A stretch of DNA of 64,000 nt from NCBI RefSeq assembly GCF_003334385.1, contig NZ_QOWN01000004.1; one strand, 5' to 3'. A program made the position numbers and the translations under genes. Positions 18,108 to 18,490 of the stretch are shown here, in pieces (within the stretch, counting starts at the first letter, position 1; each line of letters opens with the position of its first letter). The stretch is from Escherichia coli (lineage in GTDB: Bacteria; Pseudomonadota; Gammaproteobacteria; Enterobacterales; Enterobacteriaceae). Below the pieces are notes generated by a model, which saw only the letters and a program-made list of their open reading frames with translations, was not told where the DNA came from and ran no database searches.

Positions 18108-18233
18108 ATGATGAAACGCCTTATCGTTCTTGTTTTGCTTGCCAGCACGCTGCTCACGGGCTGTAACACCGCTCGCGGTTTCGGCGAAGACATCAAACAT
18201 CTCGGCAACTCCATCTCTCGCGCTGCCAGCTAA
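18108..18233 (+). CDS. ecnA: entericidin A, 41-aa small lipoprotein
   Basis: Translated by hand (below ORF-track size cut-off): [41 protein letters not shown], lipobox LTGC. Confidence 0.9.
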
Positions 18234-18343
18234 TTTTTCTTCTCTTCCGAAAAATCATCAGATTCCCATCATTTTTGGCGATGTTGTCTATTATTAATTT
18301 GCTATAGGCAAACATAAATAACATTACCTAAAAGGAAGACGTT

Positions 18344-18490
18344 ATGGTGAAGAAGACAATTGCAGCGATCTTTTCTGTTCTGGTGCTTTCAACAGTATTA
18401 ACTGCCTGCAACACCACGCGTGGCGTTGGTGAAGACATTTCTGATGGCGGTAACGCGATTTCTGGCGCAGCAACGAAAGCGCAGCAATAA
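18344..18490 (+). CDS. ecnB: entericidin B, 48-aa small lipoprotein
   Basis: Translated by hand: [48 protein letters not shown], lipobox LTAC; paralogous to ecnA. Confidence 0.9.

Follow-up and report, generated by a model that had tools for sequence, protein, structure and literature searches.

The ecnA/ecnB entericidin locus of Escherichia coli: two very small lipoprotein genes and the question of their toxin/antitoxin names

The entericidin A/B locus was described from Escherichia coli in 1998 (Bishop et al. 1998), and all RefSeq genomes of the species now carry its annotation, so that meeting it again is no discovery in itself. The locus analyzed here, which lies in a stretch of 64,000 nucleotides of E. 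coli DNA (the window), is the same one, with its sequence, coordinates and neighbourhood all as in K-12. What it offers is a calibration, in that two genes below the 60-aa cut-off of an open reading frame (ORF) track had been correctly recovered from the raw sequence by a first-pass annotation.

Type II-like chromosomal toxin-antitoxin (TA) modules such as mazEF, to which ecnAB was reportedly likened at the outset, resemble this locus in consisting of two small adjacent genes, one of them reported to be harmful when overproduced and the other to be protective. The differences are nevertheless several. A module of the mazEF type pairs a cytoplasmic toxin with a labile antitoxin, whereas EcnA and EcnB are paralogues of each other and, by prediction, envelope lipoproteins; it forms an autoregulated operon, whereas ecnA and ecnB appear to be separately promoted; and, unlike in such modules, the ecn “antitoxin” is dispensable and often absent, in a locus that is core, syntenic and non-mobile.

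On the other hand, the locus shares short lipobox precursors and stationary-phase or osmotic induction with OsmB and OsmE, lipoproteins of the sigma-S and envelope-stress responses. ecnB is co-induced with osmB on Lol inhibition (PMC5105897), and in published proteomics EcnB falls in vivo together with osmotic stress proteins of the OsmY/OsmC type. The entericidins differ from OsmB and OsmE in being far shorter (23-27 aa when mature) and in forming a paralogous pair, and we claim no sequence relationship between them. A third relative, Atu8019 of Agrobacterium tumefaciens, belongs to the same Pfam family and is made as a 53-aa precursor with a lipobox at Cys22 (PMC7296081). Unlike the ecn pair, Atu8019 has no partner; it is surface-exposed, associated with outer-membrane vesicles (OMVs), involved in vesicle docking and not lytic (PMC7296081), and thus illustrates how an EcnB-like protein can act by itself.

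Two small lipoprotein genes between efp and sugE

The sequence and the ORF list together confirmed two ATG-started ORFs of 41 and 48 aa on the plus strand (Table 1), separated by a spacer of exactly 110 bp (18234-18343), as the first-pass annotation had said. A segment of 1551 bases spanning both matches E. coli K-12 MG1655 and other K-12 derivatives at 100% identity, and every one of 5426 complete E. coli genomes has the region, 5422 of them with a coverage of at least 80%. At the same coordinates the RefSeq annotation of MG1655 has ecnA (WP_000977757.1, “lipoprotein antitoxin entericidin A”) and ecnB (WP_000239596.1, “lipoprotein toxin entericidin B”), and the K-12 gene order in RefSeq is efp-ecnA-ecnB-sugE-blc-ampC. 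The flanking genes, efp upstream and sugE downstream, were the same in all 25 tabulated Enterobacteriaceae loci, and the intergenic alignment concurs.

Both proteins matched their own NCBIfam models over the full length and above the equivalog cut-offs (EcnA against NF007319, 114.9 bits with a cut-off of 86; EcnB against NF007487, 121.9 bits with a cut-off of 94), and both matched the Pfam Entericidin family (PF08085; E-values of 7.6e-06 for EcnA and 5.9e-07 for EcnB). Together with the MG1655 match, these comparisons bear out the assignment of the two genes as ecnA and ecnB. The mature peptides that had been quoted as closely similar are exact and have 12 of 18 residues in common, and their paralogy was upheld under proper alignment: BLASTP aligned the two proteins over 44 columns at 55% identity (E 4e-14, for a single comparison), and each protein scored 44-47 bits against the NCBIfam model of the other. 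We are highly confident in explaining these genes, mechanism included, as the entericidin locus of the E. coli K-12 chromosome, in which the tandem paralogous genes ecnA and ecnB encode very small lipoproteins. This identification is already known, both genes being annotated in every E. coli reference genome. Thus the statement that the ORF track had missed them was right in its explanation by the 60-aa cut-off, but it holds for that track and not for the public annotation, which has both.

Table 1 Features of the ecnA/ecnB locus; positions are those of the window.
Feature	Position	Strand	Basis or description
Hairpin after the efp stop, 14 nt before the ecnA ATG	18060..18093	+	dG -22.6 kcal/mol, z -2.76
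ecnA CDS	18108..18233	+	41 aa; NCBIfam NF007319, Pfam PF08085, dN/dS 0.076
ecnA lipobox L-T-G-C, Cys19	18153..18164	+	direct reading; Cys invariant in the family
ecnB promoter, sigma-S-type extended -10 (C-TATTAT-TAA, C at -13)	18288..18297	+	conservation, PMC5389655
-10-like element TGCTATAGG, initially transcribed region	18300..18308	+	GCTA conserved; PMC5389655
ecnB Shine-Dalgarno AAGGAAG, 5 nt before the ATG	18332..18338	+	AAGGA at least 95% conserved; duplex -5.6 kcal/mol
ecnB CDS	18344..18490	+	48 aa; NCBIfam NF007487, Pfam PF08085, dN/dS 0.046, mass spectrometry
Predicted MicA (nt 1-28) pairing site, ecnB start codon to codon 11	18345..18375	+	RNAduplex
ecnB lipobox L-T-A-C, Cys22	18398..18409	+	direct reading; L19 and C22 invariant in the family
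ecnB Rho-independent terminator	18496..18533	+	12-bp stem (18496-18523), 4-nt loop, TGTTTTTTCT tail

Because 42 ORFs of at least 20 aa overlap the 2.5 kb between 17000 and 19500, an open frame alone proves nothing here, and it is conservation that sets ecnA and ecnB beyond chance. The orthologous locus was collected from 80 Enterobacteriaceae species, one genome each, with EcnB as the query, which makes this a sample conditioned on the presence of ecnB. Pairwise Nei-Gojobori dN/dS over the mature part was 0.076 for ecnA (54 distinct DNA sequences) and 0.046 for ecnB (79 distinct DNA sequences), at a pS of about 0.65-0.69, which is near saturation, so that the ratios are rough while their direction is unambiguous. 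The third codon position was variable in 22 of 22 codons of ecnA and in 27 of 27 of ecnB, and the second position in 9 and 7, respectively. The mature length was 23 aa in 55 of 57 EcnA sequences and 27 aa in all 80 EcnB sequences.

EcnB is among the small E. coli proteins most consistently detected by mass spectrometry, and in minimal medium a cell can contain up to ~70,000 copies of it, with far more in clpP or lon mutants (PMC12529367). EcnA, on the other hand, is undetected in the published proteomics in which EcnB is abundant, and we found no direct evidence of EcnA translation. It could be argued that the spacer is non-coding and that at least one of the two frames is open in it by chance, with ecnA possibly an untranslated relic: short ORFs are frequent in this neighbourhood, and ecnA combines a weak Shine-Dalgarno (SD) sequence with the missing proteomic signal and with repeated loss among species (see below). 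For ecnB the repeated detection by mass spectrometry refutes this, and ecnA, where it is kept, is under strong purifying selection and conserves its mature length, its lipobox and its motif, so that we find the idea scarcely credible. Two ORFs on the minus strand, 18089-18214 and 18328-18438, lie antisense to the genes and were dismissed, since they only mirror the conserved coding frames.

Both precursors have a basic N-terminus, a hydrophobic core and a lipobox (LTG-C at residues 16-19 of EcnA, LTA-C at residues 19-22 of EcnB), and the lipobox cysteine that had been read in each ORF was located at Cys19 (codon 18162-18164) and Cys22 (codon 18407-18409). The signal peptide accordingly takes up residues 1-18 of EcnA and 1-21 of EcnB, and the mature parts of 23 and 27 aa start at these cysteines; Pfam LPAM_1 matched EcnA weakly (E 0.023). 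From the established rules for lipoproteins we infer that both products are lipidated and sorted to the outer membrane. The precursors would be exported via Sec, the lipobox Cys would be modified with diacylglyceryl, and cleavage by signal peptidase II would be followed by N-acylation; Asn at +2 (not Asp) would then direct both lipopeptides through Lol sorting to the outer membrane. Lipid modification and membrane localisation of the Ecn products also stand as a curated assertion, cited in PMC12529367.

When 55 distinct sequences of the two proteins were aligned together, L19, C22, G27, G29, D31, G36 and I39 were invariant and N23, T24, R26 and S40 were conserved in at least 90%, which gives the entericidins a conserved core of C-N-T-x-R-G-x-G-x-D-I...G..I-S. 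The helical hydrophobic moment was 0.587 for mature EcnA and 0.413 for mature EcnB, each higher than in all 2000 shuffles of its own composition, in agreement with the amphipathic helix that the original description is said to have proposed. AlphaFold2 folded EcnB into a single continuous helix over residues 2-47 (pLDDT 91 in the best model and 69-77 in the others; pTM 0.49), but this prediction is weak evidence, because it includes the signal peptide that is cleaved off and because short peptides default to helices. A PDB profile search for a solved relative gave none, the only matches being signal-peptide noise at E-values of at least 0.1. We consider the Ecn proteins likely to be a pair of membrane-active lipopeptides.

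Separate expression signals of ecnA and ecnB

ecnA starts 51 nt after efp, which ends at 18056, and most of the interval is occupied by a stable hairpin (Table 1). This hairpin has no T run in E. coli, whereas the equivalent hairpin of Enterobacter has one, and the E. coli form is a leaky terminator or a stabiliser. Since only 14 nt separate it from the ecnA ATG, there is no room at that place for a separate ecnA promoter. The duplex with the anti-SD sequence is also weaker for ecnA (-3.2 kcal/mol) than for ecnB (-5.6 kcal/mol) or efp (-6.3 kcal/mol), the mean at random positions being -2.5 kcal/mol. The ecnA mRNA probably originates from efp read-through, and with a hairpin that lacks a T run and a weak SD sequence the gene would be expressed at a low level. 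Across species the conserved initiator of ecnA is the second ATG (18111, M-K-R...), while the first position is ATA, ACG or absent in several of them; judged from this alignment, the annotated 41-aa start of ecnA may be one codon too long, which would leave the mature product unaffected.

When the 125 nt upstream of ecnB were aligned for all 80 species, a block GTCTATnnTAA (18286-18296) was found to be at least 95% conserved, and it was kept also in species without ecnA. The block coincides with an extended -10 element of the sigma-S type, and the promoter ecnB P is transcribed in vitro by the sigma-38 holoenzyme and only poorly by sigma-70 (PMC5389655); thus the check for a promoter between the two genes, which had been proposed together with the gene pair, came out positive. 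Placing the published promoter on the bases of this element would put the transcription start of ecnB near 18300. An OmpR site overlaps ecnB P, and sigma-38-dependent pausing occurs on it at +17/+18 and needs a -10-like motif that places an A at +5 (PMC5389655). The element TGCTATAGG in the initially transcribed region is the probable counterpart of this pause signal, its coordinates following from our placement of the promoter.

A scan of the ecnA-ecnB spacer for a consensus sigma-70 promoter gave no match, which we did not take as absence of a promoter, because sigma-S promoters lack a conserved -35 element. An attenuator or terminator was sought between ecnA and ecnB as well and none was found (fold of -2.3 kcal/mol, z -0.24), so that transcripts from upstream could also enter ecnB. 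In an Rfam scan of 17400-19100, no known RNA family was detected in the ecn genes or their spacer, the only match being a guanidine-II riboswitch downstream.

The ecnB mRNA is repressed in E. coli by MicA, a sigma-E-dependent sRNA, and the 5' end of MicA is required for this (PMC3551931). We searched the ecnB leader and early coding region for a duplex with MicA, whose sequence was confirmed in E. coli genomes and in Rfam RF00078. RNAduplex predicted a pairing site at the very start of the coding region with -24.2 kcal/mol, as compared with -12.6 +/- 2.8 kcal/mol for shuffled targets, and none of 1000 shuffled targets reached this value. Codons 6 and 8-10 of ecnB have a low third-position entropy of 0.29-0.47 bits, a four-fold Ala codon among them, as against ~1.3-1.9 bits at later four-fold sites of the gene. 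Such low synonymous variation is consistent with a constraint at the RNA level on the predicted MicA site.

In this arrangement ecnA and ecnB would be regulated separately, ecnB having its own promoter of the sigma-S type, a strong SD sequence, a MicA site and a strong terminator. To go by the literature, ecnB is a gene of the stationary phase and of envelope stress, and its product becomes abundant.

The toxin/antitoxin question

The first-pass annotation had taken the genes for an antidote/toxin pair. As a label this is standard, being found in the RefSeq annotation and in the curated NCBIfam names, but the label is questioned in PMC7296081 and it failed the test of co-occurrence described here. 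In its classical form, the label stands for a chromosomal TA or programmed cell death module in which a bacteriolytic EcnB is neutralised by a required EcnA, the two acting reciprocally on membrane stability. Overproduction of EcnB has been reported to cause lysis, and ecnA in cis to counteract it (summarised in PMC7296081 and bioRxiv 10.1101/505081), and EcnA and EcnB, as close paralogues, could interact.

We scored the presence of ecnA in 5-kb loci by tblastn and six-frame reading, a procedure that leaves room for an unlinked ecnA copy elsewhere, and found it intact beside ecnB in 57 of the 80 species, reduced to remnants in 2 and missing between efp and ecnB in 21. Thus 23 of 80 species (~29%) have no intact copy in these loci, while ecnB, on which the sample is based, is present in all, and this is not the strict co-occurrence of a toxin with its antitoxin. 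The remnants are those of Salmonella enterica subsp. arizonae (L007) and Citrobacter amalonaticus S646 (L010, frameshifted); among the intact copies, two have atypical cores, with C-D-T in L052 and C-N-A-T in L074. The losses fall within genera, as seen with Citrobacter amalonaticus and in Enterobacter, where E. cloacae, E. quasihormaechei and E. chuandaensis have ecnA and E. sp. ENT03, E. asburiae and E. sp. kpr-6 do not. The last bases of ecnA remain in E. asburiae, indicating secondary loss. In 14 of the 23 loci without ecnA, the mature EcnB is identical to one that stands beside an intact ecnA, so that the “toxin” had no need to change.

The distribution of the locus is not patchy or mobile either, as would be expected of TA modules. 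It occupies one chromosomal site, in conserved synteny, in 5426 of 5426 E. coli genomes, and plasmids hardly ever carry it: it was found in 13 of 72,556 plasmid records, 12 of these non-mobilizable, and they are mostly megabase-sized, with several of 0.4-4.8 Mb. The ecnA Keio mutant is viable (PMC7296081), LolCDE inhibition induces ecnB without ecnA (PMC5105897), and EcnB accumulates to the copy numbers given above while its supposed antidote goes undetected. If EcnB were a lytic toxin held in check by a required EcnA, none of this would be easy to accommodate, and in spite of the reported lysis we consider such a module unlikely.

EcnB might instead act mainly outward, as an antibacterial lipopeptide released, for example, on OMVs, with EcnA as an immunity-like partner. 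As summarised in PMC7296081, Enterobacter C6-6 secretes an EcnB homologue of 3 kDa that is reported to act against Flavobacterium psychrophilum, and in Agrobacterium a lipoprotein of the entericidin family is exposed at the surface and carried on OMVs. The Agrobacterium homologue, however, is without lytic or pore-forming activity (PMC7296081), and mature EcnB has a net charge of -1 and is Gly-rich, unlike typical cationic membrane-active peptides. Nothing at the ecn locus codes for export or immunity functions in the RefSeq annotation, and ecnB occurs in many species without ecnA, the presumed source of immunity. An antibacterial role as the main one thus seems quite improbable to us.

We ourselves read EcnB as chiefly a lipopeptide of the envelope under sigma-S control, and EcnA as a paralogue that modulates it but can be dispensed with; on this reading the two do not form an obligate TA pair. 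In its fullest form we hold this reading only tentatively, at slightly less than even confidence: EcnB would not be a toxin restrained by EcnA but an abundant outer-membrane lipopeptide under the control of sigma-S and MicA, with a positive role in stationary phase or in the stressed envelope; EcnA would be a weakly expressed and repeatedly lost paralogue that no more than modulates EcnB; and EcnB would possibly be the true “sugE” suppressor. For the groEL suppression historically ascribed to “sugE”, ecnB has been suggested as the actual suppressor in multicopy (PMC12186494).

The comparative pattern, with ecnB so often found without ecnA, fits poorly with the “toxin” and “antitoxin” product names of the entericidins, and together with the published expression data it argues that these names are poorly founded. 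If EcnB is in fact no toxin, the names in RefSeq and NCBIfam are misnomers that have spread over thousands of genomes.

The region downstream of ecnB

A terminator had been proposed to follow ecnB, and the sequence there indeed forms a 12-bp stem followed by TGTTTTTTCT, with a dG of -21.4 kcal/mol and a z of -4.75; none of 200 shuffles was as stable. The gap between efp and gdx, on the other hand, had been put at about 450 bp and is in fact 610 bp, from the end of efp at 18056 to the annotated start of sugE/gdx at 18667. The smaller figure came from an entry of the ORF track, 18516-18983, which is a GTG-started frame of 155 aa. We rejected this GTG as the start of gdx: the annotated start, which gives a protein of 105 aa, has the better SD sequence (-5.8 versus -3.0 kcal/mol). 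The same 60-aa cut-off logic that passed over ecnA and ecnB thus also produced a false 5' extension of sugE/gdx, and this spurious extension covers, and so hides, the ecnB terminator, a promoter-like site at 18556-18583 and a guanidine-II (mini-ykkC) riboswitch at 18602-18648, which scored 50.4 bits in Rfam against a gathering score of 32.

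Low synonymous variation in early ecnB codons and the start of ecnA

Synonymous variation was low in ecnB codons 5-10 (18356-18373), where codons 6 and 8-10 had a third-position entropy of 0.29-0.47 bits as compared with ~1.3-1.9 bits at other four-fold sites, and this depressed stretch overlaps the site at which the sRNA MicA is predicted to pair. Upstream, a conserved CCnAAAAA block lies ~45-53 nt before the inferred ecnB transcription start. The block, which species lacking ecnA also have, may be an UP element or the site of a regulator, possibly OmpR.

The ecnA gene opens with ATGATG (18108-18113). 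Across species the second ATG alone is conserved, the position of the first being occupied by ATA, ACG or nothing in several of them, and for this reason the true ecnA start in E. coli may be 18111, giving 40 aa. Such a shift would leave the mature lipopeptide unchanged.

The sugE/gdx leader and groEL suppression

Immediately 5' of sugE/gdx lies a guanidine-II (mini-ykkC) riboswitch aptamer with two hairpins carrying ACGR loops, the sole non-tRNA Rfam match across the 64-kb window. The GTG start given for sugE/gdx in the ORF list was rejected as a spurious extension: RefSeq places the start at 18667 (105 aa), where the Shine-Dalgarno sequence is better than at 18516. The extension takes in the terminator of ecnB, the riboswitch and, at 18556-18583, a promoter-like site. 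PMC12186494 cites a 1993 paper on sugE with 'two nested ORFs' in its title, which the extended frame may echo. At the other end of the gene, the 3' ends of the convergent sugE (+) and blc (-) share 4 bp (18980-18983).

The multicopy 'sugE' clone first found to suppress a groEL mutation carried ecnB too, and sugE alone does not suppress it (PMC12186494); the real groEL suppressor may therefore be ecnB.

Coordinates of the features (in the window unless a locus is named)
Feature	Coordinates	Strand	Remarks
CCnAAAAA block	18247-18255		conserved
Guanidine-II riboswitch aptamer	18602-18648	+	Rfam, 50.4 bits; gathering score 32
sugE/gdx, ORF list	18516-18983	+	GTG start at 18516, 155 aa
LuxR/RcsA-like regulator gene	L008 (efp-ecn-sugE locus of another Enterobacteriaceae) 2678-3277	-	199 aa; equivalent position in most of L007-L081
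tRNA-Gly(GCC), three tandem genes	34151-34450	+	identical to each other, 112-bp spacing
tRNA-Phe(GAA)	4342-4417	-	

ecnAB loci in other genomes and in plasmid records

The ecnB-sugE interval is ~0.9 kb longer in most of the loci fetched from other Enterobacteriaceae, and the additional DNA holds, on the opposite strand, the gene of a 199-aa regulator whose top NCBIfam matches are RcsA-like (49 bits, under the cut-off). This gene is presumably ecnR, known from Citrobacter. Both the extra segment and the regulator gene are missing from E. coli and Kluyvera-type loci.

Among the plasmid records, NZ_CP069925.1, a 5.3-kb record labelled as a Klebsiella oxytoca plasmid, carries an ecnA-ecnB pair 100% identical to that of E. 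coli K-12, and the other matches are mostly non-mobilizable records of 0.37-4.8 Mb. These matches seem to be contamination or pieces of chromosome that were mis-assigned, and not mobile copies of ecnAB.
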